Shown: positions 12,048-64,000, numbered from the stretch's first letter. The stretch is 64,000 bases of DNA from Candidatus Saccharimonadota bacterium (GCA_024635455.1 JAGXIU010000002.1:44309-108308), one strand, 5' to 3'. Notes: generated by a model from the sequence alone, not told the origin. Numbers and translations: made by a program.

Positions 12048-12120
12048 TGAATTATATTATCAAAATCAATACTACATAAAAAGTACTTGTGCCTACTATA
12101 GACTGTTCTTATAGCAGACC

Positions 12121-13817: not shown

Positions 13818-13827
13818 AAGGTCACCC

Positions 13828-14973: not shown

Positions 14974-14996
14974 GCGCGTACTGTCTACTCCCTTGG

Positions 14997-16751: not shown

Positions 16752-16857
16752 ATACACTAGTGTACGTTTATTTCGTAATTCGAGAAAGTAGTCATGCTTA
16801 ACTTTTGGTTTGCGAGACTTCTTGATTTACTATATATGCTATATGTTCCCAAACAAT

Positions 16858-26140: not shown

Positions 26141-26402
26141 AGCTCTCCCTTTACTTATCTTCATTTGATAAGCCGTGGGTTCGCTACTAGCTCCGTGTGT
26201 TTCAAGCGACCATATACAAAACACATTTCTATGCTGGCTTTTTGATACACACTTTTGATTTTACTTAGTTACATCTTAACATATGCAATAATTTCGCAGC
26301 AAGCACAAGCAAATATCACAACATGCCTTCAGTTATACGCTGAATAAATATATAGTTCTTGGTATTTGGTTTCCGGACCCTAATTCGGAGCTTCTAGTTC
26401 CC

Positions 26403-42659: not shown

Positions 42660-42692
42660 ATTTTTGCTTATATTGCAAGGTTTAGCGTTTGG

Positions 42693-43817
42693 TTAAGGCG
42701 CGATCCGACGTGCTCTTTGCTGCACATCCATCAAGTCTCGAGCCTCTTCAAGCTTCGTGAGAACCATTTGGTCGTATGCTCGCGCTAAGGGGTCGCCTGG
42801 CCGAACACCAATACGCAACAAACGGTCATAGTACGGTAAAAAGAGTTTACTCAGCATAAAACTATAGGTTTCTAGCGGCTGTTTCTCGTCGTGTTCGTCC
42901 TTGAATAAATACCCGATGTATTCATAGATAGATTTCGCTACAAAAGAAAAGTCTTCGTTCATCTTCTCGGCAATCACGTCGACTTTCTCTGTAGCGTCAC
43001 GGTAGCTACGCGCATACTCAAGATCAATCACTCGTAGTGATCGTCCACTGTCTGCTACCGCGATATTGCGGAATTCAGCGTCACCGTGAAATATGTAGTG
43101 ACTGTGCAATAGCGCCATTGTATCGAGAACATGCTCCATTCTCTGCCCCGCCATCTCAGCGTCCATACCTGACCACTTCAGGCTATTGAGTGTTTCCATG
43201 TCTGCTTCAGTACGACTCACGACGTAACCATACGGCTGCGAACCGTCTTCTTCATCTCCACCCTCACTACCTGCTTCAGGTATTACAGCACCTGTTCGAA
43301 TAACTCCGATAACATCGAGTGCCGGCAACCCATACTGCGTCAGGTATTGGTGCATTCCGACTTCGTGTAACACCTTATAGTGATCTTTAACAGTGTTAGG
43401 TATCGGCTTGATAGCAACATCAATGGCGCCCGACTGCTGCTCGTGAAACCACTGACCTTCTAATCGTCCAAAAAATACCTGATGGCGCGATTTTTCCCGT
43501 CCAAGTCGATCAAATGGCTGCGCCTCAAACGATAAACGATCAGGGTAGCGGTACGGTGTGTCTTCGCGGAAAAAGCGAGGCGCAAAAAATACCGTGTCAC
43601 CAGAAGCTTCCAGCGACACATTCAAATTGCGTGACGGCTTACCGGTATGATCAACATACTGTCCAAGATTGGGTAGTTCGGCAAAATGACCCTGCCTGAG
43701 CGGCTCTAGAAGTTCGCGGAAAGTTTTTTGATTCTTTTCGTCAATGAGATTCCGGTTTTCAAAATAATAATCATCCAGAAACTCAAAGCCAATAACTTCA
43801 CTACTCTCTCCATCCAT
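42693..43817 (-). CDS. atypical protein-kinase-fold protein (Kdo/RIO/APH-like), copy A
   Basis: It has VAIKPI (beta3 Lys), HEVGM, the catalytic loop FHGDAEFRNIAV, and VIDLEYA. The start was set at ATG 43817, inside the last codons of the partner gene. Confidence 0.7.
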   Translation of the reverse strand: MDGESSEVIGFEFLDDYYFENRNLIDEKNQKTFRELLEPLRQGHFAELPNLGQYVDHTGKPSRNLNVSLEASGDTVFFAPRFFREDTPYRYPDRLSFEAQPFDRLGREKSRHQVFFGRLEGQWFHEQQSGAIDVAIKPIPNTVKDHYKVLHEVGMHQYLTQYGLPALDVIGVIRTGAVIPEAGSEGGDEEDGSQPYGYVVSRTEADMETLNSLKWSGMDAEMAGQRMEHVLDTMALLHSHYIFHGDAEFRNIAVADSGRSLRVIDLEYARSYRDATEKVDVIAEKMNEDFSFVAKSIYEYIGYLFKDEHDEKQPLETYSFMLSKLFLPYYDRLLRIGVRPGDPLARAYDQMVLTKLEEARDLMDVQQRARRIAP

Positions 43818-44454
43818 AGTCGACTTCCTCCACAATGCGGCGAGCCAGCGGTTCGGTGCTAATGGGTGCTTCACCACTCATTAAAAATCCCGCAAACCCT
43901 ACCAGCTGTTCGTCTAGTGCTTTTGGTTCATCCGTTAACGAATATGGCGGCAAAAAAACAACACGTGCCCCTAAATCTGACTGTCGATCGGGGTAAAAAG
44001 CAAACTGCTGCAACCAGTTGCCAGACGGCGCGCCAAAACCAGCCTCGTGCAGCTTGCGCAACTGCTGCCCAAGTAGACGGAACACGGACATGTACTGCGT
44101 CGTATCGTAATGTTCTTGCTGAGCATCTCCTATTAACGCTACCAGCGATTCAATACTTCTAGTATTTTTCGGCACTGGTAACACAATTTTGTCATTGATG
44201 TGCGTCTTCTCAAGCACATCAATCCCAGAGTCTCGCAATCTGTCATGACTTGATTCGACGGCAGAACCTTCACGTATAACAATAATCCGCTCACGCAGTC
44301 GGTCACTATAGAGTTCGTGCACGTCTATATCAGATGTATCTGTGTCGGTGAGCAGTGCAAATGTATCTTCTATCGGATAAAGGTCGCCGTAGATAACCTG
44401 CAGGGTTTCATAGTCAAATCGCTCGCCTGAATCGGCGATATCAAACTCCATCAT
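43801..44454 (-). CDS. hypothetical protein, partner of kinase-like copy A
   Basis: 217 aa. It is a paralog of 45764..46390, sharing ERII, VLPVP, FRLLG..LR..HE...G.PSGNWL.QFA and VV.LPPY. Confidence 0.65.
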   Translation of the reverse strand: MMEFDIADSGERFDYETLQVIYGDLYPIEDTFALLTDTDTSDIDVHELYSDRLRERIIVIREGSAVESSHDRLRDSGIDVLEKTHINDKIVLPVPKNTRSIESLVALIGDAQQEHYDTTQYMSVFRLLGQQLRKLHEAGFGAPSGNWLQQFAFYPDRQSDLGARVVFLPPYSLTDEPKALDEQLVGFAGFLMSGEAPISTEPLARRIVEEVDYGWRE

Positions 44455-44540
44455 AGTTTCTATATTATAGCACTTTTTTAGTTTTTTATCAAAGGATGGA
44501 TTTTTCTATTCCTTTATAAGCGCTGTTTTTATAACAGCCG

Positions 44541-44652
44541 CTTCGACCCACTCGAGGAGTTTACCACCCATATTACGGGTGTCGGTGGCCGATGCCGGTA
44601 CAAAGCACGTGGTTGTATGCTCCTGCTAAGGGGTCGCCCGGCCGAACACCAA
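44541..44652 (-). pseudogene. chimeric gene remnant: a kinase-A-like 3' fragment abutting a murE-like 3' fragment
   Basis: 44541..44608 aligns to 46468..46535, with about 10 mismatches and a 2-nt deletion over ~68 nt. 44611..44652 aligns to 42770..42811, with 4 mismatches in 42. Confidence 0.8.
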
Positions 44653-44715
44653 GCTTAGATCCGGCTAGCAACGAAGGGGATCGATAAAACACCTAGCATT
44701 ACTAAAGCTTATGAC

Positions 44716-45789
44716 TTATGCGTGGCGCCAGTAACCCTCATCTCCAACAGCCTCATCAAGCCTGCGAGAAACTACGTTATCATATGCGAGACCAAGTGGA
44801 TCCTGGGGTGTAATCCCAAATTTAACCAGCCTGTTGAAATAAGGTAAAAACACGTGTTCATGCATAAAATTAAATCGATCTGTTAGTGAGGTAACGTCAG
44901 CTTCATTCTGGTACAGATGACCAACATTTCCGTCAAGAGAAGATGCAAGAAAGCTAAAGTCGGATTTCATAAACAAAGATAACTTTCGTACATCATCTTG
45001 CTCATCAAGCAGGCTCCCCGATAGTTCCAAATCAACTATCGTAGGCTTTTGATTGGCATCACAAACGGCAATATTTTTAAAAGCTGGGTCACCATGAAAT
45101 ATATAATTTGCGTGCAGTAAAGCGAGCGTGTCGACTGCATGGCTCAAGGCGTTTGCAGCCTCCTTGGCGGTCATATCACCCCACTCAAGCGTATCGAGAG
45201 TTCGAATATCCGGTTCGTATCGAGTAATTACAAATCCGTATATATCAGGCGCATCTGATTTAATAAGTCCCAAGACGTCCAACGTCGGAACATCAAGTGA
45301 CGCAACATGTTGGTACATCGCTATTTCATGCAGCGATTGCTGATGCTTAATAAAATCCTTGGCATGCGGTATGGTGCTTACGGCAACCTCTACTGTTGGT
45401 TTTTCTTCTGATGCAACTCCTATGCCTGACATCTCACCAAAAAATAACTGCCTCCTGGAGTCTTCTCGACCAAACCTAAAAAGCGGACGAGGCGCAAAAG
45501 CAAACTCTTGCTTTGGCGCAACCTCTACACCCGAGTGAAATAAGGCGGCCGCTTTTTCACTTTCTAGTATTTCATGCACAGCGGAGCTTCGACCACCACG
45601 ATGATTCAGGGCAGCTCTTACATCTGGTAGTTCACCTATTGGACGGTGCGTAAGTCCCTCAAGAGATTCGATAAATACCGCTTGGTTACGATCACTAACT
45701 TCACGTCGCTCTGGATCGTTGTAGTAGTTTGGCTTTACACCTTGAGGGAAATGCTCGCCCGAGTTACGTTTCTCGATTCCACCCATCAT
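44716..45789 (-). CDS. atypical protein-kinase-fold protein, copy B
   Basis: It has FHGDPAFKNIAV and IVDLELS. The position of the beta3 Lys reads VAVSTI. The start ATG 45789 (MMGG) lies inside the partner gene's last codons. Confidence 0.68.
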   Translation of the reverse strand: MMGGIEKRNSGEHFPQGVKPNYYNDPERREVSDRNQAVFIESLEGLTHRPIGELPDVRAALNHRGGRSSAVHEILESEKAAALFHSGVEVAPKQEFAFAPRPLFRFGREDSRRQLFFGEMSGIGVASEEKPTVEVAVSTIPHAKDFIKHQQSLHEIAMYQHVASLDVPTLDVLGLIKSDAPDIYGFVITRYEPDIRTLDTLEWGDMTAKEAANALSHAVDTLALLHANYIFHGDPAFKNIAVCDANQKPTIVDLELSGSLLDEQDDVRKLSLFMKSDFSFLASSLDGNVGHLYQNEADVTSLTDRFNFMHEHVFLPYFNRLVKFGITPQDPLGLAYDNVVSRRLDEAVGDEGYWRHA

Positions 45790-46390
45790 GCACTTCCCAC
45801 GCAAGCTGCGTTATTGTTGTCTCGTTCAGATTTGTCGTATCAGCAAGCTGCAATCCAATTTCGGTCATGGCGTTCACAGCTCTTTCATGCGTGTTGTATG
45901 GAGGCAATAACACTACCTTGGCGCCATATTTTTCCCCCGCATCAGGATGATACGCAAACTGGTCGAGCCAATTGCCTGACGGTAAGCCAACATTGCTTTC
46001 ATGAATAGCACGCAGCTCGCCTCCAAGTAGCCGAAATACAATCGAATAATTTTGCGGGTCTCGCTCAATGAATCCTGCAATAGTGCGCATGCTTCGAGCG
46101 CCCTCCGGTACAGGAAGTACTCTATCTTCCCCAAGAGACTTCTTTTGCAACAAATGAACTCCGTTTGCCACCAAATAATCGTGGGTTTCTTCAATTTTTG
46201 ATCCGCCCTTGAATGTAATAATCCGCTCTGGAGTCTTGGTTGTCGTCCACTCTTTTACGTCTGACCCGAATGTCTCGACATCAGACAGCAATGAAAAAGA
46301 GCGCTGGACCGGGCGAAGGGTTCCAAAGGTTTCATAGAATGACTCTGGCAAACTAGGGTGCTCACCGCGATCTAGATAGTGCTCTGACAT
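45764..46390 (-). CDS. hypothetical protein, partner of kinase-like copy B
   Basis: 208 aa. It is a paralog of 43801..44454. Confidence 0.65.
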   Translation of the reverse strand: MSEHYLDRGEHPSLPESFYETFGTLRPVQRSFSLLSDVETFGSDVKEWTTTKTPERIITFKGGSKIEETHDYLVANGVHLLQKKSLGEDRVLPVPEGARSMRTIAGFIERDPQNYSIVFRLLGGELRAIHESNVGLPSGNWLDQFAYHPDAGEKYGAKVVLLPPYNTHERAVNAMTEIGLQLADTTNLNETTITQLAWEVHDGWNRET

Positions 46391-53486: not shown

Positions 53487-54497
53487 ATGCATGTTCTGAA
53501 AAATATACTGACAGCAATCACCGCACTGCTACTTCACCTAACGCTCCCGCTACTCGTGATTGCCAGTATCTTTACCCTCTTGTTTACTACGCCAGACACA
53601 ATTAAACAATCATTCCGTGAAGCAGATGTCTACCAGGCATTTGTCGACACAATTGCACATGAACTCACTGCGCAGACACAAACAGATGGTTCATCCGATA
53701 TACCACAAAAAGAAATGCGCAACGCTATAGAACAAGCGGTGACAGCAGAGGATGTCCAGACCCAGGCAGAGCAGGCAATTGATGGCGTATATGATTGGCT
53801 GAACGGTACGACCGAGCAGCCAGAATTCATGATTGATTTCGGTCCTGCCCGAGAACGATTTGCTGAGGAAATAGCCATGTTTGCAGCAGAACGGCTACAG
53901 TCACTACCGACCTGTACATCACTCGACCAGCTACAAGGAGAAATTGATCCGCTAACTACCGAGTGTTTGCCGCCGGGTTTTGACCCCATCGAAAAAACGT
54001 CTACCTATGCAGATGAGTTACTCGCCTCAGATGACTTTATTCCAGATGTACAAATTTCATCTACTGAATTGCTCGATGACATCGAGGACGATGATCAGAT
54101 ATCGACGATTCCAGAGGGCTTTGAGTGGTTAATGCGTAGTATATGGATTATATCTACTGCAATCGTTGTGCTAGCGCTCGGGCTGTTTGCACTCGCTCCG
54201 TCAAAGCAAGTTGGCGTCCGGCGAGTCGGCATGCAATTCTTTATAGCTGGATTATGGCTTGGTCTATCGACGCTGATCGTGTGGATTCTGCAAGATGGGC
54301 TATTTAAAGAAAATGCGGCGGCGGCTGAGATCCAAAATGCCCTTGCTAGGGCAGGAGAGCTGCTCGTTGGCGATATATTGTTAATAATGGCCGTTGGCGC
54401 AGGTATATACGTTCTGCTTGGATTATCGCTCCGCTATGGCTTGGCCCCTCGATTGAAGGCGGAGGAGCCTGCGGTAGATAAGACCGGGCGGGCATAG
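53487..54497 (+). CDS. hypothetical multi-TM membrane protein
   Basis: 336 aa. It has an N-terminal TM segment, an acidic central region and three C-terminal hydrophobic segments. Confidence 0.55.
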   Translation: MHVLKNILTAITALLLHLTLPLLVIASIFTLLFTTPDTIKQSFREADVYQAFVDTIAHELTAQTQTDGSSDIPQKEMRNAIEQAVTAEDVQTQAEQAIDGVYDWLNGTTEQPEFMIDFGPARERFAEEIAMFAAERLQSLPTCTSLDQLQGEIDPLTTECLPPGFDPIEKTSTYADELLASDDFIPDVQISSTELLDDIEDDDQISTIPEGFEWLMRSIWIISTAIVVLALGLFALAPSKQVGVRRVGMQFFIAGLWLGLSTLIVWILQDGLFKENAAAAEIQNALARAGELLVGDILLIMAVGAGIYVLLGLSLRYGLAPRLKAEEPAVDKTGRA

Positions 54498-54564
54498 TTT
54501 ATATATTTATGAGAGGTTCGACGAAAGCTTACTTCACTCAAGCTTAATCATGGCAAGTTGTTTG

Positions 54565-54991
54565 TCGGAGAGAGGGATGAACACTCAATGATAGACCGTC
54601 AGCTCGTGTTGTTTATATTCGAGAGGGATATCGGCTTCGCCTCTTCCGTTCAGGCTTACTCGAAGCAACCGTTCTTCACTAAAGCTACGAATAGCTTGGC
54701 TTCTGCGTGAGCCTTCGCTCCACCGAACGCCTCGGTACGTATTTTTTAGAAAAAAATACCCTCGGGCTTGAAGCCCTCTATCAAATAAAAAAGACCGACT
54801 AAAGCCAGTCTTCTTTATTTGGCGGAGAGAGAGGGATGAACACTCGATGATAGACTGCACGTTCCGTGCATTCCATCATCTCGCTATTTGTCGTCAAGTG
54901 GTAACTTGACAACAATCGAACCTGAGAACCGAATTCCTGCTTTCACTGGCGAGAAAGCTAAACCCGAGCACAAGGCTCGGGTCTATCTTCC
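54565..54991 (-). repeat. tRNA-Ser(CGA) trailer: conserved unit plus two further copies of the tRNA 3' end
   Basis: The 18-nt tRNA 3' end (54992..55009) recurs exactly at 54820..54837 and in degenerate form at 54565..54597. 54781..54991 is the inverted partner of 59081..59291. Confidence 0.85.
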
Positions 54992-55083
54992 TGGCGGAGA
55001 GAGAGGGATTCGAACCCTCGGTACCGATTGCTCGGTACAGCTGTTTTCGAGACAGCCCAGTTCAGCCACTCCTGCACCTCTCC
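54992..55083 (-). tRNA. tRNA-Ser(CGA), class II, CCA encoded
   Basis: The hand-folded cloverleaf has acceptor GGAGAGG/TCTCTCC, anticodon stem GCTGT/ACAGC with loop CTCGAAA, a long variable arm GTACCGA-gcaa-TCGGTAC, and T arm GAGGG-TTCGAAT-CCCTC. Confidence 0.9.
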
Positions 55084-55125
55084 ATACCTAAAATATGCTA
55101 TCACATACTATCAGCTCATCAGTAC

Positions 55126-55656
55126 TTAGGCAGACCCGTCATTTGGTATGCACGATAACAACACTACGCCACCGATAAATGAACCACGGGCCTTTCTTTT
55201 TTCTAATCGAACGTCCTCAATCTTATGAATTGACACACCGACTGCCTCAGATAAACCATATACACACTCCAGCAACCCAGCAAGTTTTTCGAGGCGCTCG
55301 CTGCTGCTTGGGCTTGCCGCTAGCTCTGCGTGCAACAGATTAAAACGCTCATTCAGAGCGTCCGCAGAAGCGCCCTCGAGGCCCATGACTGGACGTTGCT
55401 TTCTTTGGGTTCTTTGAAGGTGCTGCTCGGTATAATCATCGAGTACAGTAAAGCTATACAAAACTTCGGATATATCACTGAGCTCTTCGGTTTTGCATTC
55501 AAGCCTTTCTGCTTCGTTGTATTCAGCATATTCTTCGATTATTTTTTCTAGCAAGAGACCTCTGTGCTCGGTCTGACTAGAAACATTTCGCCACTCCGGT
55601 GATCGACCGTCGTTAGCGAGTATAATTTCTGGTATATTGTCGCGTACAAGCTTCAT
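55126..55656 (-). CDS. MazG-like nucleoside triphosphate pyrophosphohydrolase family protein
   Basis: MKLVRDNIPEII...LLEKIIEEYAEYNEA...EELSDISEVLY resembles the KLVRDKIPEII MazG-like family. Confidence 0.6.
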   Translation of the reverse strand: MKLVRDNIPEIILANDGRSPEWRNVSSQTEHRGLLLEKIIEEYAEYNEAERLECKTEELSDISEVLYSFTVLDDYTEQHLQRTQRKQRPVMGLEGASADALNERFNLLHAELAASPSSSERLEKLAGLLECVYGLSEAVGVSIHKIEDVRLEKRKARGSFIGGVVLLSCIPNDGSA

Positions 55657-55814
55657 AGCATCAATTGTATGTTAAATCTGATGAAGAAAGTATACCTCGA
55701 AGTTGCAGGATAGACACAAGCAAAAACAAGCAGTTTAACTTACGGTCGTAGACTCAAACCACTGGAGTATATATGCAACAAAAAAGCCCGAGACAAAAGC
55801 TCATACCTTTTTAT

Positions 55815-55828
55815 TGGTACACCCGGCA
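55815..55828 (-). repeat. isolated 14-nt copy of the tRNA-Arg 3' end (att-like)
   Basis: tggtacacccggca is identical to 57645..57658, in the same orientation. Confidence 0.6.
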
Positions 55829-56002
55829 AGGACGAGTTGGGAACAAATTAAAGCGGAACTGATTGAAATTGGGCAACAGGTTAAAAAGAACCGAGGAACA
55901 AACTTCTTGTAGTCTAAGCGACAATAACTAAACCACGTCAATGAGTTATGTGAAAAGCCAGTAACACCTTTAGAGCTGTTGACAGCTTGCTTGTATTATG
56001 AT

Positions 56003-57181
56003 ATGATGTCGCTTATGTCAGTACAGCACGAAATGATGCCGCTTTTGGATCCTAGAGAAGTTAATCCACCGCCTTCGGAAAGGGTTCTTGCGCCAGATGA
56101 ACAGGTTCAGATTGACCTTGATGCTCCCCTTGCTGACAGTCAAGAAGTGCACGATAGGTTGGGTATACGAAGTAACTTAGTTGCTACCGTAAACGCTGGT
56201 AGTAAGAGCTTTTTAATTGTTGACTCTCGTAATACTCGCAGCAATAGGGATTTCTTTATTTCAGATGAAACCTTTTCAAAAGAAAACAGAATAGGATTCA
56301 AAGGTGTACTGGAAGACGAGCCAGTAGTCATAGGTCGTGGTCATCACACAGATAGATTCTCTTACCCAGCTACTGTTTCTAGAGAGCATTTTGAAGTTTC
56401 ATACACCGATGAAGCGTTATTTATTCGCAATCTACGACCAACTAACAAAACCACTGTAACGGCTCATTTAGCCTTAGAGCAGCAACACCAAGGGGTTTCC
56501 CCTCGTTACGCCGTTGAAGATATACGCACAATCCTAGTAGAAGACAGACTGCAAGCACACCCCGACTTTGACGAAAAAGATGAAACAGCCCCATACGGGT
56601 ACTATATGAATCACCAAATCTTAGGTAGAGCGTCTAAGTCAGTAGACGGCGGAGTATATTTGGGTGGTTCAGCTCGTGAAGCAATAGTAGTTGACGGCAA
56701 ATCCGTAGCTATGAAGCAGGTATATGAAGGTGTTGCAACAGAGTTGCGACAATCATTCCAAAAAAATGAAACTTTGCCAATGCAGTCTATCTTATTGAAG
56801 GTAATGCACAGAGTTCAAGAAGTGATGCCGTATGACGGTAGAAAAACAGAAGATATTAGCCGACAGCACCATGGTGATAAATTAGTCGGGCTTAGTACAT
56901 ATGTTAAAGAACGAGTTGGTGTTTGTAGACATCAAGGCTTATTGGCCGCCTACATTATTGAAAACCTTATTAAAGACGGTCATATGCTTGGAATAGTAGG
57001 TGTTGAACGTAATACTGTTAAAGATATGGGTGGAACGCACGCTTGGGCCGTTTACAAAACTAGCAGTAATGAAGCCGAAGAAGTAATTGTTGTTGACCCA
57101 GCTCAATCATTTGTCGGCACCAAAGCACAAGCACAGCGCGAAGGTCGGTGGGAATACCGCTTGACCACTGACAAATACTAG
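56003..57181 (+). CDS. FHA-domain protein with a C-terminal transglutaminase/papain-like Cys-His-Asp core
   Basis: The FHA region is VIGRGHHTDRF...VSREHFEV...LFIRNLRPTNKTTV. The C-terminal candidate triad is GVCRHQG, GTHAWAV and VVDPA. The first in-frame ATG is 56003; the ORF opens at TTG 55979. Confidence 0.65.
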   Translation: MMSLMSVQHEMMPLLDPREVNPPPSERVLAPDEQVQIDLDAPLADSQEVHDRLGIRSNLVATVNAGSKSFLIVDSRNTRSNRDFFISDETFSKENRIGFKGVLEDEPVVIGRGHHTDRFSYPATVSREHFEVSYTDEALFIRNLRPTNKTTVTAHLALEQQHQGVSPRYAVEDIRTILVEDRLQAHPDFDEKDETAPYGYYMNHQILGRASKSVDGGVYLGGSAREAIVVDGKSVAMKQVYEGVATELRQSFQKNETLPMQSILLKVMHRVQEVMPYDGRKTEDISRQHHGDKLVGLSTYVKERVGVCRHQGLLAAYIIENLIKDGHMLGIVGVERNTVKDMGGTHAWAVYKTSSNEAEEVIVVDPAQSFVGTKAQAQREGRWEYRLTTDKY

Positions 57182-57454
57182 TCTTAGTTTCTAAACTACT
57201 ACTGAAGCAAAAAAATGAGAGCTGTTATTGCTAAAACATAAAGAGCAAATTATTGACGAAGTTATGCAGCTCATTAACCAGCCAGACGAGTTACGGAACC
57301 AAGCTATCCTCAAGATACAGAAGGCTATCCAATGGTTAGTATTTCCGAACGGACTTGAGTGTGACTTCGGAACTGGTTTTTGAAACCAGTCCACTAAGCC
57401 AAACTCATCTGTTAATTTAAGAACTTGATAAAAAATTACCTGAAAATGCAAATT

Positions 57455-57505
57455 TGGTACACCCCTGCCCGATGTGATACATCGTATCAGGCGGGCGGCA
57501 GGATT
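57455..57505 (-). pseudogene. tRNA-Arg 3' stump split by a 32-nt insertion
   Basis: The minus-sense read is AATCCTGCCG-[CCCGCCTGATACGATGTATCACATCGGGCAGG]-GGTGTACCA, compared with the intact AATCCTGCCGGGTGTACCA. Confidence 0.8.
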
Positions 57506-57611
57506 ATCGCACACAATTGCTAAAGCATTTGCTCGGCCAAGCAAGGAAAACATAATGTGCCACCGGCACATTATGCCTACGGTCGCAGGTTCAAGCCAAC
57601 GACCTACCACG

Positions 57612-57638
57612 CAAAAACCCGACCAAAATGGTCGGGCC
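57612..57638 (-). terminator. rho-independent terminator after tRNA-Arg
   Basis: The minus-sense read is GGCCCGACC-atttt-GGTCGGG-TTTTT. It starts 7 nt after the CCA. Confidence 0.8.
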
Positions 57639-57644
57639 TTAGCG

Positions 57645-57721
57645 TGGTACACCCGGCAGGATTTGAACCTACGACCTTCTGTACCGCAAACAGACGCTCT
57701 ATCCAGCTGAGCTACGGGTGC
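57645..57721 (-). tRNA. tRNA-Arg(GCG), CCA encoded
   Basis: The hand fold is GCACCCG TA GCTC AGCTGGATA GAGC G TCTGT TTGCGGT ACAGA AGGTC GTAGG TTCAAAT CCTGC CGGGTGT A CCA. The anticodon loop TTGCGGT gives GCG. Confidence 0.85.
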
Positions 57722-57730
57722 TTAATTTAT

Positions 57731-57973
57731 CTATTGTATTCTTGTGAAAAGTACTTTTCTAGCATTACCACTCTTTTTTACCTGACTTTCTCTTTTTCGT
57801 GCTAGCCCTAACTCTCGGTATGCTTCGTAATAAATCAACTCTATGGGTAATCTTGATTTTGTAGAAGCAACCTTACCATCTTGATGCTCTTTCAGTCTAC
57901 GCTTCAAATTTGATGTTGAACCGTAATAAAACTTATTGTCGGCACAAGAGTGCAGAATATAAAAATAGTACAT
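57731..57973 (-). CDS. small GIY-YIG (URI-domain) nuclease family protein
   Basis: 80 aa, with YYFYILHS...KFYYGSTSNLKRRLKEH...E...E motifs. Its stop lies 9 nt upstream of tRNA-Arg. Confidence 0.8.
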   Translation of the reverse strand: MYYFYILHSCADNKFYYGSTSNLKRRLKEHQDGKVASTKSRLPIELIYYEAYRELGLARKRESQVKKSGNARKVLFTRIQ

Positions 57974-57980
57974 TTATTAA

Positions 57981-57988
57981 ATTATACA
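57981..57988 (-). promoter_or_regulatory. extended -10 (TGTATAAT) directly upstream of the GIY-YIG ATG; likely a leaderless or near-leaderless transcript
   Basis: The minus-sense read is aaaaaaTGTATAATttaataaATG. Confidence 0.5.
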
Positions 57989-58000
57989 TTTTTTAATGTT

Positions 58001-58051
58001 CCAGCTGACCCGCCTGATACGATGTATCACATCGGGCAGGGCTACGGGTGC
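58001..58051 (-). pseudogene. tRNA-Arg 5' stump split by the inverted copy of the same 32-nt sequence
   Basis: The minus-sense read is GCACCCGTAGC-[CCTGCCCGATGTGATACATCGTATCAGGCGGG]-TCAGCTGGA, compared with the intact GCACCCGTAGCTCAGCTGGA. Confidence 0.8.
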
Positions 58052-58137
58052 ATATATGTGTAACGCGTAAATGATCGAGCTTTTGCCTCATGGGCAAACG
58101 GAGCAGGGGAAACTATAGCATATAACAGAGGTTATTA

Positions 58138-58698
58138 CTAGAAACGTATTTTACGCATCAAGTTATCAATAGCGTCAGGGTCGCTATCCTCCATCGGTAA
58201 ATAATCAGAAATGGCTTCGATGATTTGATCCTCCTGATCAGGGGGGTAATATACGCGCAACTCAGTGGTAAAACGCTTTATTGGTAGCAAAAATATAGAT
58301 GATATGGCGCCTTCGTCATGTACAGCAAAAGACTTGAATGAGTCGAACTCGTATAGCCTACCGCTTACATCAATGCCGCTCGGTGTTATCTCATACTGCC
58401 GAACTTCTGGTTTACGTGTAGCCAACACCCCGAAAGATGCGCCAGCAATCAAAACTACGATAAGTGATATAGCATCACGCGTTAGCAGATAAACAAGCAC
58501 AGACAATAAAGCGAGGCCAATCCCAAACGATACATACCAGGAAAGACTTTTGTGGTGCGCGATAAATTCAGAGGCAGACCAGCTTACCAGGCTCCCTCTT
58601 GGTTCAGGGGATACCTGTTGAGCATCTTGGCTGTTAGAGTTCTTTCTAGTAATCTGGGCTTCAAGTTGTTCGATTGTCGGCTCTTGCTGATCCTGCAT
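58138..58698 (-). CDS. hypothetical two-TM membrane protein
   Basis: 186 aa. It has two adjacent TM segments (WYVSFGIGLALLSVLVYLL and ISLIVVLIAGASFGVLA) and a soluble C-terminal domain. Confidence 0.55.
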   Translation of the reverse strand: MQDQQEPTIEQLEAQITRKNSNSQDAQQVSPEPRGSLVSWSASEFIAHHKSLSWYVSFGIGLALLSVLVYLLTRDAISLIVVLIAGASFGVLATRKPEVRQYEITPSGIDVSGRLYEFDSFKSFAVHDEGAISSIFLLPIKRFTTELRVYYPPDQEDQIIEAISDYLPMEDSDPDAIDNLMRKIRF

Positions 58699-58767
58699 GT
58701 GCTTATTGTACCTGAAGATAGCACTACATAGAAAGTACTCAGAGCTATTAGTCGCGTTGCGTGGAAT

Positions 58768-58780
58768 TATTTGCTATAAT
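58768..58780 (+). promoter_or_regulatory. putative tRNA promoter -10 block tatttgcTATAAT
   Basis: The same 13-mer occurs upstream of tRNA-Ser(TGA) at 59466..59478. Confidence 0.55.
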
Positions 58781-58821
58781 CTTCATCTGTTACAGTCTAA
58801 GCTAGTCATAGATTGTGACGA

Positions 58822-58914
58822 GGAGAGGTACCCAAGTGGCTGAAGGGGCGGCTTTGCTAAAGCTGTAGGGGGGCGCAAGCTCCCGCGAGGGTTCGAATCC
58901 CTCCCTCTCCGCCA
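58822..58914 (+). tRNA. tRNA-Ser(GCT), class II, CCA encoded
   Basis: The acceptor is GGAGAGG/CCTCTCC. The anticodon stem is CGGCT/AGCTG with loop TTGCTAA. It has a long variable arm and T arm GAGGG-TTCGAAT-CCCTC. Confidence 0.9.
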
Positions 58915-58917
58915 GGA

Positions 58918-58958
58918 GAGAAGCGGTCATATCTTTATGGTATGGCCGTTTCTCTTTT
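58918..58958 (+). terminator. rho-independent terminator after tRNA-Ser(GCT)
   Basis: The hairpin is gagaagcggtcata-tctttatgg-tatggccgtttctc, followed by tttt. Confidence 0.7.
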
Positions 58959-59080
58959 GGAGAAAGGATGCGAACCCGTATCCGCTGGAAGTGGAAGGGT
59001 TCGGTGACACAAGCTGACGCGCAGATGCTTGCATCGAGCATCAGTGCAGTGGCAACGATGTCATCCCTCCCTCTCCGCCA
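58959..59080 (+). repeat. type-A trailer unit ending in an exact second copy of the tRNA-Ser(GCT) 3' end
   Basis: 58998..59062 matches 59650..59714 with 8 mismatches in ~66 nt. The 18-nt sequence atccctccctctccgcca sits at 59063..59080. Confidence 0.85.
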
Positions 59081-59291
59081 GGAAGATAGACCCGAGCCTT
59101 GTGCTCGGGTTTAGCTTTCTCGCCAGTGAAAGCAGGAATTCGGTTCTCAGGTTCGATTGTTGTCAAGTTAGTACTTGACGACAAATAGCGAGATGACGGA
59201 ATGCGCGGAACGTGCAGTCTATCATTGAGTGTTCATCCCTCCCTCTCCGCCAAATATAGAAGACTGGCTTTAGTCGGTCTTTTTTATTTGG
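59081..59291 (+). repeat. type-B trailer unit (hairpin-bearing left arm, third tRNA 3'-end copy, terminator); inverted partner of 54781..54991
   Basis: There are about 8-9 mismatches over ~211 nt against the reverse complement of 54781..54991. The core copy lies at 59235..59252. Confidence 0.9.
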
Positions 59292-59465
59292 CAGACAGGT
59301 TCGAACCCGATTTAAGCGAGCTGTGCGAGCGAGGGTTCGGCGGAGTGAGGTCACGCTCAGAAGCTCGCTTCGAGCATGGCCGAACGTAAAAGACGAAGAC
59401 AATATTCCTCTCTCTACGAGAAAGAAGTGATATGAGCGCTGCCTTCCTATTCTGAAATCAGTTTA

Positions 59466-59478
59466 TATTTGCTATAAT
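59466..59478 (+). promoter_or_regulatory. putative tRNA promoter -10 block tatttgcTATAAT
   Basis: It lies 11 nt upstream of the tRNA-Ser(TGA) 5' end and is identical to 58768..58780. Confidence 0.6.
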
Positions 59479-59489
59479 CACACTCTGTT

Positions 59490-59579
59490 GGAAGGGTGAC
59501 CGAGTGGTTTAAGGTACTTGTCTTGAAAACAAGCGTGCCGGAAACGGTACCGTGGGTTCGAATCCCACCCCTTCCGCCA
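59490..59579 (+). tRNA. tRNA-Ser(TGA), class II, CCA encoded
   Basis: The acceptor is GGAAGGG/CCCTTCC. The anticodon stem is CTTGT/ACAAG with loop CTTGAAA. It has a long variable arm and T arm GTGGG-TTCGAAT-CCCAC. Confidence 0.9.
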
Positions 59580-59732
59580 GGAAGGTAGACCCGAGCCTTG
59601 TGCTCGGGTTTAGCTTTCTCGCCAGAAAGTATGGAGTCGAGCCCGATGCGGTTCGGTGACACAAGCTGGCGCACAGAAGCTCGCTTCGAGCACCAGCGCA
59701 GTGGCAACAATGTCATCCCACCCCTTCCGCCA
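59580..59732 (+). repeat. compact trailer unit (B-type left arm + A-type right arm) ending in a second copy of the tRNA-Ser(TGA) 3' end
   Basis: The left-arm hairpin gacccgagccttgtgctcgggtttagctttctcgcc lies at 59588..59623. The core atcccaccccttccgcca at 59715..59732 is identical to 59562..59579. Confidence 0.85.
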
Positions 59733-59770
59733 AACAAAATGAATCTACCTTGTGTAGGTTCTTTTTGTTT
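59733..59770 (+). terminator. rho-independent terminator closing the tRNA-Ser(TGA) trailer
   Basis: The hairpin is gaatctac-cttgt-gtaggttc, followed by tttttg. Confidence 0.7.
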
Positions 59771-59858
59771 GAGGGGTGATTCGAGCCCACGGGCGACAGC
59801 TACTGCTGCCGTTGAGCCGTGTATAAACCCGACAATCTATAGTGTGTCGGGTTTATAT

Positions 59859-60539
59859 TTAGTCTTTTTGGCAGAATACACTAGCGTATACGTTTTTATA
59901 ACCTGCTCGACGCAGCTCTTTTGTTGCTGCTATCAACGTGCCGCCTGTAGTCGTCACGTCATCGACCAGCACTATTGGAGTGTCTTTATGTTTGCCCGCT
60001 GCAGTACCAGCTAAGAACGCCCCTTCTAGTTGCTGCAAACGAGTCGCTCGGGTTGCCCCGACTTGGCGTACATTACTAAGGCGTCGGAGCAGGGGATGGT
60101 AGCTCCTACTAATATTATTCGCTAGGGACCTAGCGATAAGTTGCGCCTGGTCATACCCCCGCTGACGAATCCGGCTCGGGGCAGTTGGTATGTGCGTAAT
60201 AATGGTTTCCTTGGGTAGATAAGGCATTGACTCCGCCATGAGTGATGCAATGACGGTTACTGACGCCCGCTTGCGGGAGAACTTCATGCCTTCGATCAAT
60301 TTCTTGGGTACACCCGTGTACAAACTTGTCACCCACACTTGTTTAGGTGGGCTATATCGTTTTACGCACCGTGCGCACGTAATCGTACTGTCGCCCTGAG
60401 CCTTACAAAGAAAACAACGCTCAGGTATCGGCTCACGGACATCAGGCAAACACCAATGACAAACGATACTACCTATGCGACCACAAACGGTGCAATGGTG
60501 TGGAGCGATTTGTGCTATCAAGAGTTCTACTACGTGCAT
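59859..60539 (-). CDS. comFC: ComF-family phosphoribosyltransferase (ComFC-like)
   Basis: It has N-terminal Cys clusters (CTVCGRIGSIVCHWC and CFLCKAQGDSTITCARC) and the PRT motif IVLVDDVTTTGGTL. The start is ATG 60539. Confidence 0.82.
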   Translation of the reverse strand: MHVVELLIAQIAPHHCTVCGRIGSIVCHWCLPDVREPIPERCFLCKAQGDSTITCARCVKRYSPPKQVWVTSLYTGVPKKLIEGMKFSRKRASVTVIASLMAESMPYLPKETIITHIPTAPSRIRQRGYDQAQLIARSLANNISRSYHPLLRRLSNVRQVGATRATRLQQLEGAFLAGTAAGKHKDTPIVLVDDVTTTGGTLIAATKELRRAGYKNVYASVFCQKD

Positions 60540-60667
60540 GTTGTTATTAGTACTGTTGTAAATATAGAGCCAAACTGTTGCCCTTATCTTATAATGTAAG
60601 CTATACTTGCTAGTAACAAAAATTGCAAACCTTAGAAAATAAATTCTACAAGTGGAGGGTAAGACGT

Positions 60668-61144
60668 ATGGCGCGCAAAAATCGCGATGAAGACCTATTG
60701 ATGGAAGATGAATTAACGGCAGCTTTTCTTGATGACGAAGAATTAGCGCCCGTAAATACATCATCTAATGATCAGCCGGCAGATGCAGGCAATGATGACT
60801 GGGATGAAGACGAGGCTGTACCAGGTCAACTTGCAGTTGACGTGTACGAGACCAAAGAACAGCTAATTGTTAAGGCGCGTACAGCTGGCGTCAACAAAGG
60901 CGAGCTTGATGTGAGCATTGCTGACAACACGCTCAGCATTCGAGGCACGCTCTCAGCCGGAACTGAGGACGGAGTAGAGAACTACTTTGTTCAGGAATGT
61001 TATTGGGGCGAGTTTAGTCGCAGTATCGCATTGCCAGTTCCAGTCAAAGAAGAAGAAATTGACGCAGTTCTTAAGGACGGTGTACTAACTATCAGCTTCA
61101 CTAAGGTTAAGCAAGACACGGTTAAAAAGATAGAAATCAAATAG
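60668..61144 (+). CDS. Hsp20/alpha-crystallin small heat-shock protein
   Basis: It has AVDVYETKEQLIVKARTAGVNKGELDVSIADNTLSIRG and LKDGVLTISFTKV. GGAGGG lies upstream of ATG 60668. Confidence 0.88.
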   Translation: MARKNRDEDLLMEDELTAAFLDDEELAPVNTSSNDQPADAGNDDWDEDEAVPGQLAVDVYETKEQLIVKARTAGVNKGELDVSIADNTLSIRGTLSAGTEDGVENYFVQECYWGEFSRSIALPVPVKEEEIDAVLKDGVLTISFTKVKQDTVKKIEIK

Positions 61145-61245
61145 CACAAACAATAACTATTCTGATTAGATAATAAGTGCGAGTTAAATCGCGCTTATTT
61201 TTTTGAGTTGCTGTCTGACTTCTCGAAGGAGTATGTGCAACAAAT

Positions 61246-61277
61246 AAAAACGACCCGTGCTTGGCGGGTCGTTTTTA
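61246..61277. terminator. bidirectional rho-independent terminator between hsp20 and the pilin-like array
   Basis: The sequence is aaaaacgacccg-tgcttgg-cgggtcgttttt. Confidence 0.8.
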
Positions 61278-61294
61278 TCATAAAGATGCTTTTA

Positions 61295-61705
61295 CTATAG
61301 GTCAGTAGCAGTCGTTAATACGAACCGAACGATAACCTGAGCAAGTGCAACTACGACTAGGCCAATAATGGCGTAGAGGATGGTGTTCTTGGCGCCTGTT
61401 ACGTTACCTGAGTCACCGCCCGAAGTTATGTACTTAAGGCCACCAATGATGATCATGATGACAGATATAACACCTACAACGAGGGAAAATACATTGATCG
61501 TTGTGGTAATGATGCCTTCGACGCGTTCTTCTGGGTTATCGCCGCCCTCTGGATCTGTAGCTGTTGCCCCAGAATCGAGATTTCCAGAAATACCTCCGTC
61601 AGGGTTAATAAGCTGTGCTTCAGCAGGACTAACCAACACTAAGGGTGCAACGACTCCTGCGATGAGCACCATCTGTAGTGCAATTGATTTTAGAGATTTA
61701 AACAT
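61295..61705 (-). CDS. VirB2/TrbC-like (T4SS pilin-like) small membrane protein, paralog 1
   Basis: It has a signal-like N-terminus ending AEAQ. The C-terminal module is VVGVISVIMIIIGGLKYITSGGDSGNVTGAKNTILYAIIGLVVVALAQVIV. Confidence 0.7.
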   Translation of the reverse strand: MFKSLKSIALQMVLIAGVVAPLVLVSPAEAQLINPDGGISGNLDSGATATDPEGGDNPEERVEGIITTTINVFSLVVGVISVIMIIIGGLKYITSGGDSGNVTGAKNTILYAIIGLVVVALAQVIVRFVLTTATDL

Positions 61706-61773
61706 TTGAATTATTTTCCTTTCTTACCTGTTATTTATACACCGATAGTTATCTTTGGTCAAGATTGTACTGT

Positions 61774-62190
61774 CTAAACAGTATCGATTACAAACAATAC
61801 TATTACCTGAGCGAGGGCTACTATAGCAAGGCCAATGACAGCATACAGAATGGTGTTCTTAGCGCTGGTTATATTGGAAGGGTCACCGCTTGACATAATG
61901 TACTTCAGGCCACCAATAATAATCATAATGACGGCTATAACACCGACAACAACGGAGAATATATCAATTGCCGTCTGTATTGCGCCGTAGAGGTCACCCT
62001 CTGCATCACCTGGAGGGTTCGGATCTGTTAGACAGGCCCCAAGTGCTGGACCTGTAAGCCCGCCACAGTGGCTATTTGCAAACACGTGTTGCGTCGGAGC
62101 GAATGCTACAAGTGCAAACAAAAGCGCACCAGTGATTAATATTGCCTTGATGATTGTTTCTTTTTGAATAGTGTATAATTTTTCGAGCAT
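61774..62190 (-). CDS. VirB2/TrbC-like small membrane protein, paralog 2
   Basis: The C-terminal module is VVGVIAVIMIIIGGLKYIMSSGDPSNITSAKNTILYAVIGLAIVALAQVIV. The variable region has two Cys. Confidence 0.7.
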   Translation of the reverse strand: MLEKLYTIQKETIIKAILITGALLFALVAFAPTQHVFANSHCGGLTGPALGACLTDPNPPGDAEGDLYGAIQTAIDIFSVVVGVIAVIMIIIGGLKYIMSSGDPSNITSAKNTILYAVIGLAIVALAQVIVLFVIDTV

Positions 62191-62204
62191 TTTTTTCCTT
62201 ATAT

Positions 62205-62618
62205 TTATATGGTTTCTATCACAAACAATACAATAGCTCGTGCAAAAACTGCAACTCCGATACCAATTAATGCATAGATTATGGTGCTTCGTGCACTTGC
62301 TAGCTTAGCCGAGTCTCCCGTTGATAACATGTACTTTACGGCGCCGACAATCAACATAAAAACTGCAATGACGCCGATTCCAATCAGCAATATGTCAATT
62401 ACCTCTACTACGAAATCAGTCACGCCGCTATCTTGTGCCGTATCGCCGCTCGTATCATCATTACTCTTACAGACTTCAGGGATATTACTTCCGGTATAGG
62501 ACGAGCATGATGGATCGAGCACTGATTGCGCACTAATCGGAGTAGCTAATAAGAGCAACAATGACATGGTAATAACGGCCATAGCCCGAAGGGCAGTCTC
62601 AAGTTTATGCACTACCAT
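62205..62618 (-). CDS. VirB2/TrbC-like small membrane protein, paralog 3
   Basis: The module is IGVIAVFMLIVGAVKYMLSTGDSAKLASARSTIIYALIGIGVAVFA. ATG 62618 lies 4 nt after the stop of paralog 4. The variable region has two Cys. Confidence 0.68.
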   Translation of the reverse strand: MVVHKLETALRAMAVITMSLLLLLATPISAQSVLDPSCSSYTGSNIPEVCKSNDDTSGDTAQDSGVTDFVVEVIDILLIGIGVIAVFMLIVGAVKYMLSTGDSAKLASARSTIIYALIGIGVAVFARAIVLFVIETI

Positions 62619-62622
62619 GCCC

Positions 62623-62919
62623 TTAAGTGCTCCCAATAACAAAATTAACAATCGTCCAGGCACTTATAGATATGGCTAGCCCTATGACTGACCATAATAT
62701 AGTCTTTTTGGCGCGCGCAACCCTTTGTGGGTCACCGCCTGACAATGTATACCAGTAGCCTCCAACAATGACCATAATGACTGATATAATCCCTACTGCT
62801 ATAAATACAAACTCCGTAACCGAAGCAAGCTGATCGCTACCGAGACTACCATCTTTATTTGGATGCTCAATATCATCAAAAACACCACTGATTTGTGAAA
62901 ATATTGTAAGAAGCTTCAT
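62623..62919 (-). CDS. VirB2/TrbC-like small membrane protein, paralog 4 (short, no clear signal peptide)
   Basis: The module is VGIISVIMVIVGGYWYTLSGGDPQRVARAKKTILWSVIGLAISISA. Confidence 0.62.
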   Translation of the reverse strand: MKLLTIFSQISGVFDDIEHPNKDGSLGSDQLASVTEFVFIAVGIISVIMVIVGGYWYTLSGGDPQRVARAKKTILWSVIGLAISISAWTIVNFVIGST

Positions 62920-62924
62920 AATTA

Positions 62925-63359
62925 TTACGCCAACAAAATGTTCGTCACTATGTTAACTATAGCCACCGCAAATACCGCTAACACCAGGCCAACCAAGCCA
63001 TTAATAATAGTCTTTCTGGCGTTGCTCAATTGCTCTGGTTGCCCTTGACTCATACTGAACAGTATACCACCGTATATAACGTATCCCACAGCTACGATGC
63101 CGGCTATACGAAGTAGTATTTCTATAGCCGCGAACAAAATTGCTGAAACAGTAGCTCCTATGTCAACTGATTCATCTTTTTGTGGCAAAGAAATACTGCA
63201 ATCATCAGCCACATCAAGATATTCATACCACGTCGGGAATCCCAAGAAGCTTGATGAGCCATCATAATCCTTACAGTGATTATCGGCGTGTACTGTACCT
63301 GGCGATACCATAGTGAATATACCGACCACCGCAAATAAAAGTGCCGTAAACTTTATCAC
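62925..63359 (-). CDS. VirB2/TrbC-like small membrane protein, paralog 5
   Basis: The module is AGIVAVGYVIYGGILFSMSQGQPEQLSNARKTIINGLVGLVLAVFA. GTG 63359 has GGGAGGGG 9 nt upstream. The variable region has two Cys. Confidence 0.65.
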   Translation of the reverse strand: MIKFTALLFAVVGIFTMVSPGTVHADNHCKDYDGSSSFLGFPTWYEYLDVADDCSISLPQKDESVDIGATVSAILFAAIEILLRIAGIVAVGYVIYGGILFSMSQGQPEQLSNARKTIINGLVGLVLAVFAVAIVNIVTNILLA

Positions 63360-63360
63360 C

Positions 63361-63882
63361 CTACAGAACCCCTCCCGGCACAAGCCATTGCAAGAACGCG
63401 AACAAGAAAATATATATAACTAACGCCGAAATAGCTTGCGTAATCCGTTTTTTAGCGGCAGCAACTGCTTGAGGGTTTGAGCCTGCTGACGAGTATTGAA
63501 TTCCGCCGATAACAATCATCATAACAACGACAATCCCAAATATAACGGCTAATGCATCTGTAAAAATTTTTAAATAAGCGATGATTCCACAGGTCTCGGG
63601 GTTAATGTCATCAGTCTCGCAATCAGCTTTGATATCAGGTCTCAGGCCAGATGACGTCTCTTGAGCTCCTCCTGGATTTTGAAGAGCATGCTCACGACAA
63701 AGCTCTCTATCACCTGGGTCAGAAATACGATCACATTCTGCCGCCGTCCTACCGTGGTCAGCTTGCACATAAACGGGGCTCGATAAAGAAAGCAACAGGG
63801 CCCCGAATACAGCAATAACTAACGCTAAAATAAAAGATTTTTGCGCATACCGCCTGTTGCGTAAATTGTTTTGCATTTTCAT
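63361..63882 (-). CDS. VirB2/TrbC-like small membrane protein, paralog 6
   Basis: The module is FGIVVVMMIVIGGIQYSSAGSNPQAVAAAKKRITQAISALVIYIF. It has a signal/TM N-terminus and four Cys in the variable region. Confidence 0.65.
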   Translation of the reverse strand: MKMQNNLRNRRYAQKSFILALVIAVFGALLLSLSSPVYVQADHGRTAAECDRISDPGDRELCREHALQNPGGAQETSSGLRPDIKADCETDDINPETCGIIAYLKIFTDALAVIFGIVVVMMIVIGGIQYSSAGSNPQAVAAAKKRITQAISALVIYIFLFAFLQWLVPGGVL

Positions 63883-64000
63883 ACTTGTTACTGCTTACTA
63901 TGTTCTCTTGTAAATCAAATATAAACTACACAAAGAATAAAACAGTTTAGAGATTCTGTAAATCACGATTGTCGGTCAAAGCAATAACTTAGACTTATTT

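Follow-up and report, generated by a model that had tools for sequence, protein, structure and literature searches.

A conserved, ordered array of six pilin-family genes coupled to a monoderm-type type IV secretion system in a Saccharimonadales bacterium

Canonical VirB2/TrbC/TraA pilins – such as those of the Agrobacterium T-pilus, RP4 and F – are small proteins with a long cleavable leader, two hydrophobic helices and a short basic loop. Here, we describe a tandem array of six genes for pilin-like proteins (p1-p6, numbered from the end nearest the secretion operon) located close to one end of a 64,000-nt stretch of DNA from a Candidatus Saccharimonadota bacterium (GCA_024635455.1 JAGXIU010000002.1:44309-108308), which is referred to throughout as the window. 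We conclude, with a probability of roughly 0.85, that these are the pilin genes of a chromosomal type IV secretion system (T4SS) of monoderm (MPF-FATA-like) type in an environmental Saccharimonadales bacterium (Patescibacteria), and that they are orthologous to SEML1_0014-0019 of Ca. Southlakia epibionticum. The array is a conserved and ordered set of six pilin-family paralogs, and it is physically coupled to a T4SS of monoderm type that lacks conjugation-specific genes.

Arrays of this kind have been described since 2018 and were well covered in 2023-2025; the one reported here is a correct and ordinary instance of a published system, and its standing as an open novelty, which the original prediction from the sequence had assumed, is not upheld. 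The T4SS cluster of S. epibionticum was studied by transposon sequencing (Tn-seq) by Wang et al. (2023, Cell), and its six pilin genes were each scored essential (PMC10633639). These genes, SEML1_0014-0019, encode six PF18895 proteins of 132, 185, 103, 126, 127 and 138 amino acids, and they are divergent from SEML1_0007-0013 (M15B peptidase, VirB4, an 882-nt gene, PrgI and VirB6-like genes) and followed by Hsp20 and comFC (PMC10633639). Epibiotic growth of this cultivated Saccharibacterium requires the T4SS and its pilin array, and this is the only case in which a monoderm T4SS may make a pilus. More broadly, a survey of 3,035 genomes with PF18895 and PF04956 (Quiñonero-Coronel et al. 2025, Microb Genom) reports 441 arrays of 2-11 pilin genes in 383 assemblies, with a mean within-array identity of ~25% and a maximum of 54%; the arrays lie near virB4 and are abundant in Saccharimonadia (PMC12102498).

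The original prediction had claimed six minus-strand open reading frames (ORFs) of 98-173 amino acids in the region considered here, and all six are present as follows; the signal peptides, with the putative cleavage site marked by an arrow, are heuristic calls throughout.

63361-63882, minus strand: p1, pilin-like protein of 173 amino acids, nearest the T4SS operon; signal peptide VQA↓DH (heuristic), ectodomain with four cysteines, two-helix module.
62925-63359, minus strand: p2, pilin-like protein of 144 amino acids from GTG 63359; signal peptide VHA↓DN (heuristic), ectodomain with two cysteines and an FLGxPxWYxYL motif, module.
62623-62919, minus strand: p3, pilin-like protein of 98 amino acids; short acidic N-terminal tail, leaderless, no cysteine, then the module.
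62205-62618, minus strand: p4, pilin-like protein of 137 amino acids from ATG 62618; signal peptide ISA↓QS (heuristic), ectodomain with two cysteines.
61774-62190, minus strand: p5, pilin-like protein of 138 amino acids; signal peptide VFA↓NS (heuristic), ectodomain with two cysteines; close paralog of p6.
61295-61705, minus strand: p6, pilin-like protein of 136 amino acids; signal peptide AEA↓QL (heuristic), no cysteine; candidate major subunit.

The longest ORFs of p2 (62925-63383, beginning at TTG 63383) and p4 (62205-62663, beginning at GTG 62663) each overlap the preceding gene. With p2 starting at GTG 63359, which is preceded by GGAGG, and p4 at ATG 62618, the successive gaps from p1 to p6 are 1, 5, 4, 14 and 68 nt, which reproduces exactly the predicted spacing of 1-14 nt with a single 68-nt gap. 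In a public gene call p2 begins at ATG 63311 (128 amino acids), which would leave a 49-nt gap there.

Alignment of the six proteins confirms that they share a C-terminal two-helix module, as had been proposed, with residues G78, V82, G88, A105 and I109 (p6 numbering) invariant. The first helix ends in IIGG, IVGG or IYGG (IVGA in p4), the loop motif A-[KR]-x-x-I is present in all six, and each module has two hydrophobic peaks. Identity to p6 across the array ranges from 20% to 50%, the latter being that of p5 over its full length. The cysteines of the exposed part number 4, 2, 0, 2, 2 and 0 from p1 to p6, in agreement with the earlier count of four proteins with paired cysteines and two without. 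Signal-peptide-like N-termini had been predicted for all six; this stands for five, in which a basic stretch and then a hydrophobic one precede an AxA-type site at the positions listed above, and fails for p3, in which the same heuristic reading finds no hydrophobic N-terminal leader. An AlphaFold2 model of p6, built from the six-paralog alignment (mean predicted local distance difference test score, pLDDT, of 63.6), consists of a leader helix, an ectodomain that is disordered, and a hairpin of two helices (residues 58-94 and 99-135), for which the pLDDT is 74-84.

All six proteins are members of the Pfam family PF18895 (T4SS_pilin, gathering cutoff 26.6 bits), with scores of 28.1, 29.9, 52.5, 29.7, 49.0 and 51.1 bits for p1 through p6, respectively. 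Since all six separately pass the cutoff of one curated family, a chance match is of no concern, and the assignment to the T4SS-pilin-like family that the original prediction had put forward is borne out by the scan. All six also match NF045849, the 'Mbov_0395 family pilin-like conjugal transfer protein' of mycoplasma integrative and conjugative elements (ICEs), with E values from 2e-10 to 1.6e-4 (6.5e-7 for p1). The equivalog cutoff of this family is 40 bits, and p3 scores 40.2 bits and the other five 21.3-35.8 bits, so that the six proteins are relatives of the family and not members of it. A type IV pilin or type II secretion system (T2SS) pseudopilin identity was considered and ruled out, as none of the six sequences has a class III leader with a prepilin peptidase site of the G↓F[TS]LIE type.

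The original prediction saw no other secretion component in the window and placed the machinery, if present, beyond position 64000. It is found there on a public contig (L001) that is 100% identical to window positions 59829-64000 and runs 10 kb further, where, 178 nt from p1, a T4SS operon begins on the other strand. From the array outward, the intergenic region and the operon comprise the following.

63883-64000, no strand assigned: the first 118 of the 178 nt that separate p1 from the divergent T4SS operon, which begins past the window.
L001, strand opposite to the array: operon gene 1, 333 amino acids, no family match; ends 178 nt from the p1 start.
L001 6049-8754, strand opposite to the array: operon gene 2, a 901-amino acid polytopic protein, with TrbL_3 (PF19590, VirB6-like) in a precomputed table only.
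L001, strand opposite to the array: operon gene 3, a PrgI/VirB3 homolog (PF12666, 43.6 bits against a cutoff of 27).
L001, strand opposite to the array: operon gene 4, 294 amino acids, with a weak match to TrsD and to the N-termini of three VirB4 models.
L001, strand opposite to the array: operon gene 5, a VirB4 ATPase of 639 amino acids (CD1110 family NF045971, 353.6 bits against a cutoff of 325).
L001, strand opposite to the array: operon gene 6, a large gene with a 979-amino acid product and a precomputed VanY-type peptidase hit.

The VirB4 ATPase also matches P-loop_TraG (98.8 bits) and NF045975 (Mbov_0397, 259.5 bits), and its 639 residues align to positions 182-734 of the 752-position CD1110 model, with the N-terminal ~180 positions missing. 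The 294-amino acid product matches TrsD with an E value of 8.7e-6, at 25.7 bits against a cutoff of 200. These alignments indicate that VirB4 is split into two genes (L001:2034-4838), one for the 294-amino acid TrsD-like protein and one for the 639-amino acid ATPase. No relaxase or coupling protein was found among the annotated products of the window plus the adjoining 10 kb (~74 kb in all, within which a few short ORFs were not scanned), and no VirB5, VirB7, VirB9, VirB10 or VirB11 was seen. In the window part of the intergenic region between array and operon the only promoter-like match is 9/12 (63962-63934), no better than chance.

Comparison with relatives shows that this arrangement is maintained. 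Using VirB4 as an anchor, we identified at least 586 relatives among species-representative genomes, and analyzed the best 80 of these matches, which are 81-88% identical in VirB4; all 80 are Ca. Saccharimonadales or Saccharibacteria metagenome-assembled genomes, which places the lineage in the candidate phyla radiation (CPR), in whose genomes the original prediction had called this pilin-like family common. A hidden Markov model (HMM) built from the six window modules, run over all ORFs of these loci, recovered 297 pilin ORFs, which in every case lie upstream of the same operon and point away from it. Among the 47 arrays not touching a locus end, 37 have six ORFs, with sizes of five, seven and nine also seen.

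This constancy bears on the suggestion that the gene products are small proteins of a generic kind, secreted or membrane-bound, or 'effectors', that have no structural role and adjoin the T4SS by coincidence. Earlier work on TM7x did name 'six putative effector genes' in the T4SS region, which by inference are the same array, and the Foldseek matches of the p6 model are non-specific helical hairpins. The passing of a curated pilin-family cutoff by six proteins of six, the divergent layout with the T4SS operon kept in dozens of species, and the essentiality that the array shares with the T4SS genes in S. epibionticum all stand against it, and we regard this explanation as highly improbable.

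The gene order p1-p6 is fixed among the relatives. When each protein is compared with those of the other genomes, the best match is at the same position in 1227/1260 comparisons for p1, 1252/1260 for p2, 966/1260 for p3 and 1148/1260 for p6, and p4, p5 and p6 cross-match as one subfamily. The extra copies in the seven- and nine-gene arrays are of the p6 type and lie at the distal end. Among orthologs, module identity is 69% for p6 and 39-53% for the other five, with p4 the lowest at 39%, and over the 40 residues just before the module identity falls to 24-31% in each of the six. The p1 proteins have the longest and most variable ectodomain, with ORFs of 129-301 amino acids and 2-11 cysteines, and p3 is short in all relatives (median 99 amino acids). 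Several of the five-ORF arrays contain a fused ORF with two modules, and four such ORFs, each with two complete pilin modules, were found.

L010:1870-2523, minus strand: p2-p3 fusion.
L028:520-1200, minus strand: p2-p3 fusion.
L039:2220-2912, minus strand: p2-p3 fusion, in a five-ORF array.
L063:2547-3377, minus strand: p1-p2 fusion, in a five-ORF array.

These could be real fusions or frameshifts of assembly; if real, they would mark neighbouring subunits that act together.

An alternative is that the array holds interchangeable pilin variants, used singly or in shifting mixtures for different host strains or for evasion, as proposed for the VirB2 genes of Bartonella and Anaplasma, and the survey suggests this (PMC12102498). 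Paralog modules within a genome are only ~26-45% identical, with p5 and p6 excepted, and the ectodomains are the fastest-evolving part among orthologs, as variants of this kind might be expected to show. The p5 and p6 modules are 64.7% identical within genomes and 56.1% between genomes, a difference compatible with co-evolution or with some gene conversion, and hence with some exchange. The order and identity of p1, p2, p3 and p6 are nevertheless kept across species, p3 is structurally distinct (leaderless) everywhere, and the data are explicable without repeats or signals of shuffling. Moreover, each ortholog is individually essential in S. epibionticum, unlike what is expected of interchangeable copies, and fusions of neighbours imply joint use. 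We consider interchangeable variants quite improbable, and a hypervariable cassette was ruled out by the conserved order and orthology. As to the 'heteropolymeric or variable' filament of the original prediction, the conserved order, the position-specific orthologs and the essentiality in S. epibionticum favour a fixed, non-redundant set of six.

The gene p6 is further set apart by its flanking signals. Among the relatives, only the p5-p6 gap is consistently long (median 73.5 nt, versus -4 to 6 nt elsewhere), and in the window it and the region past p6 contain the following.

61734-61762, minus strand: putative sigma-70-type promoter in the p5-p6 gap, with -35 TTGACC (61762-61757), a 17-nt spacer and -10 TATAAA (61739-61734).
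61718-61725, minus strand: ribosome-binding site AAGAAAGG of p6, upstream of ATG 61705.
61243-61279, minus strand: intrinsic terminator after p6, with a ACGACCCG/CGGGTCGT stem followed by a T-run; predicted fold -20.6 kcal/mol.

The 36 clean six-gene arrays were used to count these features and the cysteines. In 31/36, a TTGnnn-N16-18-TAnAAn motif, for the most part with TGn ahead of the -10 element, is positioned 26-39 nt upstream of the ATG of p6, against a chance expectation of 0.03 per interval, and this motif is clustered in the p5-p6 gap, with 32 matches there versus at most 10 in any other category. GAAAGG is present within 20 nt of the p6 ATG in 33/36, and a hairpin with a T-run within 80 nt past p6 in 30/36. 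A generic promoter scan gave no excess of sites (8 versus 8.0 expected), and missed the conserved p6 promoter because its rule demands T at position 6 of the -10 element. The window includes a dnaG - rpoD - AAA_18 - unknown - second sigma-70-family gene cluster (11055-16757, minus strand), so that a sigma-70 capable of reading a promoter of the p6 type is available in this organism. As a separate observation, the N-terminal part of p6 has exactly two cysteines in 34 of the 36 clean arrays and none in one, evidently the window's own copy (L001), so that this genome seems to have lost the ectodomain cysteine pair of its most conserved pilin.

These data suggest how the six proteins may be used. 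Sec would export the five leader-bearing subunits, with signal peptidase I removing their leaders; p3 would insert in the membrane without a leader, and all six would be held as membrane hairpins with the N-terminus out, the basic loop in and the C-terminus out, a topology with which the natural two-module fusions are consistent. The VirB4-driven machine would then pull the subunits out and build from them a filament or conduit, wall-spanning or extracellular, that points to the host bacterium. Probably p6 is the bulk subunit, because it is the most conserved, has a conserved promoter of its own, a strong ribosome-binding site and a terminator, and is the type duplicated in larger arrays. The p1-p4 proteins (possibly also p5) are probably low-copy specialised subunits – serving, for example, in priming, at the tip or in host contact – because they are position-specific, have variable cysteine-containing ectodomains and are occasionally fused to a neighbour. 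We hold this major/minor heteromeric model tentatively, at somewhat less than even odds. A more specific form, in which there is one ordered heteromeric filament, with p6 supplied in bulk from its own promoter, p1-p4 (possibly with p5) forming a fixed complex for priming, capping or targeting, and the fusions marking adjacent subunits, is possible and rather more doubtful. If correct, this filament would be without precedent both as a heteropolymeric VirB2-type pilus and as a T4SS pilus made by a monoderm.

Several results weigh against reading the array as pilin genes. All six proteins are below the cutoff of PF04956 (TrbC/VirB2, 27.9 bits); the best is p6 at 26.1 bits (E = 1e-5), with p1-p5 giving 16.5-18.8 bits or no match at all. 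Alignment of 60 pilin modules with eight annotated VirB2/TrbC proteins by hhalign gave a probability of 0.4%, a weak negative given that the set is small and drawn from Alphaproteobacteria only; it was retrieved with an Agrobacterium VirB2 sequence used solely as a probe, which matched an annotated virB2 at 99.2%. A Foldseek search of the PDB with the p6 model yielded nothing at E <= 0.001, only generic helical hairpins with E > 1 throughout, and a bare hairpin from a model with a pLDDT of 63.6 has little discriminating power in such a search. The HMM profile of the 60 modules found nothing significant among PDB sequences, and a tblastn search of 72,556 plasmids with p6 was likewise empty. Our own hmmscan of Pfam and NCBIfam, even at E <= 10, did not reproduce the precomputed TrbL_3, TraC-like and VanY hits. 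Both the promoter and the major-subunit role of p6 are deduced purely from conservation. No filament made by this system is reported in the literature found, and a review still terms a pilus an 'intriguing possibility' for this lineage. Homology to canonical VirB2/TrbC could not be demonstrated, and the link is one of architecture and sub-threshold similarity; of the predicted VirB2/TrbC likeness the architecture holds, and at the level of sequence there is sub-threshold similarity only, with no profile-profile signal.

The unreproduced precomputed hits sit at L001:6049-8754, 3954-4838 and 1-2022, and a difference of version or filter may explain them; the VanY domain is probably outside the fetched part of the 979-amino acid gene.

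The same absence of detectable homology to canonical VirB2 and of any reported filament would fit an account in which the six proteins are membrane-embedded parts of the channel, like VirB3 or CDS15 of mycoplasma ICEs, with no extracellular pilus. To our knowledge, wall-less mycoplasmas do not make such pili. The closest curated family besides PF18895 is the mycoplasma NF045849, which can be equated with CDS15 by inference (Mbov_0395 is two tags before Mbov_0397 of the VirB4 family), and ICE CDS15 is described as VirB3-like in the literature, two further points against a pilus. Monoderm MPF-FATA systems also generally lack pili, and the VirB4 of this operon, of the CD1110 family, is of their type (PMC12102498). 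Three features argue the other way: five of the six proteins have cleavable-looking leaders and 30-90-residue cysteine-containing ectodomains that vary between species, as exposed parts do; a separate PrgI/VirB3 gene is already in the operon; and a strong promoter, ribosome-binding site and terminator of its own for one paralog suggest a high-copy structural subunit. A purely channel role is in our judgement unlikely, and we favour the assignment as pilin genes.

The mycoplasma match may indicate that a small hairpin subunit is native to monoderm FATA-type systems, which we treat as a lead and not a result. The survey leaves the choice between a native and a diderm-borrowed origin open (PMC12102498); if the lead holds, monoderm (FATA-type) conjugation systems would be the native home of the pilin module, with no borrowing from diderms.

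Beyond the array, two conserved neighbours follow p6, and neither is assumed to be part of the secretion machinery.

60623-61144, plus strand: HSP20 gene (PF00011, 63.1 bits), a conserved neighbour.
59859-60764, minus strand: ComF-like phosphoribosyltransferase gene (Pribosyltran, 29.7 bits, with a weak double zinc ribbon), a conserved neighbour.

Their longest ORFs overlap at 60623-60764, so that the true starts must lie further in; the public gene calls give 158 amino acids for HSP20 and 226 for the ComF-like protein. The rest of the window is housekeeping in character, with PolA, DnaG, RpoD, GroES/EL, ArgRS and LeuRS. It also includes a gene for a 1276-amino acid protein (22394-26224, minus strand) with PKD and bacterial Ig-like domains near the C-terminus, a candidate surface adhesin of the epibiont, whose exact sequence is absent from the gene index, probably owing to a start-codon difference. 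A stand-alone VanY D-Ala-D-Ala carboxypeptidase (27028-27795, plus strand; 151 bits) is additional to the giant VanY-domain gene downstream of virB4. Five consecutive genes (41691-46390, minus strand; ~322, 374, 216, 356 and 208 amino acids) between groES/groEL and a Mur ligase gene have no Pfam match on record. The stretch 53487-59800 contains an FHA-domain protein (55979-57181, plus strand) and ORFs without a family match at 53487-54497, 55126-55656, 57191-57652 and 58138-58698.

Of the described systems, that of S. epibionticum is the closest, and the locus matches SEML1_0007-0021 in order, with a six-gene array flanked by Hsp20 and comFC. In both, a one-direction six-gene array is divergent from an operon for an M15B/VanY peptidase, VirB4, a TrsD-like protein of ~290 amino acids, PrgI and a VirB6-like protein, although on L001 the VirB6-like and VanY assignments come from the precomputed table and the TrsD match is weak; the 294-amino acid product fits SEML1_0009 in position and size. 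HSP20 corresponds in position and orientation to SEML1_0020, and the ComF-like gene to SEML1_0021 (K02242, comFC). The third pilin gene is the shortest (103 amino acids there, 98 here), and a single large gap precedes the last (83 nt there, 68 nt here). The window genome is nevertheless that of a different, uncultured species, and essentiality is known only for S. epibionticum. In addition, two large VirB6-like genes flank a 278-amino acid NTF2-like gene there, whereas here there is one gene for 901 amino acids and a 333-amino acid gene with no family; p6 is without cysteine here.

The VirB2-like arrays of Patescibacteria reported in the survey differ from the window array in nothing essential (PMC12102498). 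Relative to the sections of the survey consulted, the details added here are the position-specific orthology, the promoter and terminator of the last gene, the duplication of the p6 type and the module fusions. Together with the missing leader of p3, these argue against its reading of the paralogs as interchangeable variants, and they can guide the choice of proteins for further work, with p6 to be tagged or purified and p1 and p2 as candidate specificity factors.

Canonical VirB2/TrbC pilins resemble the window proteins in size, leader, helices and loop, in adjoining VirB3, VirB4 and VirB6 genes, and in the sub-threshold TrbC matches. They differ in that the window system has a monoderm host with an MPF-FATA-type VirB4, six non-redundant paralogs in place of one major pilin plus VirB5, and variable cysteine-containing N-terminal ectodomains. 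The Mbov_0395 family shares an 80-residue model matched by all six proteins, and in both settings an MPF-FATA-type VirB4 is encoded two genes away; mycoplasmas have a single copy of the gene, which, so far as the 80-residue model shows, is without ectodomains.

Two further comparisons are more distant. The VirB2 arrays of Bartonella and Anaplasma, an analogy drawn in the survey (PMC12102498), likewise consist of diverged pilin genes in tandem in a host-associated bacterium, although theirs are thought to give antigenic or host-range variation, whereas the paralogs here are ancient, ordered and, in a relative, each essential on its own. The major and minor pilin sets of type IV pili and T2SSs, with one abundant and several conserved low-copy subunits, offer a functional analogy only, their fold and biogenesis being unrelated.

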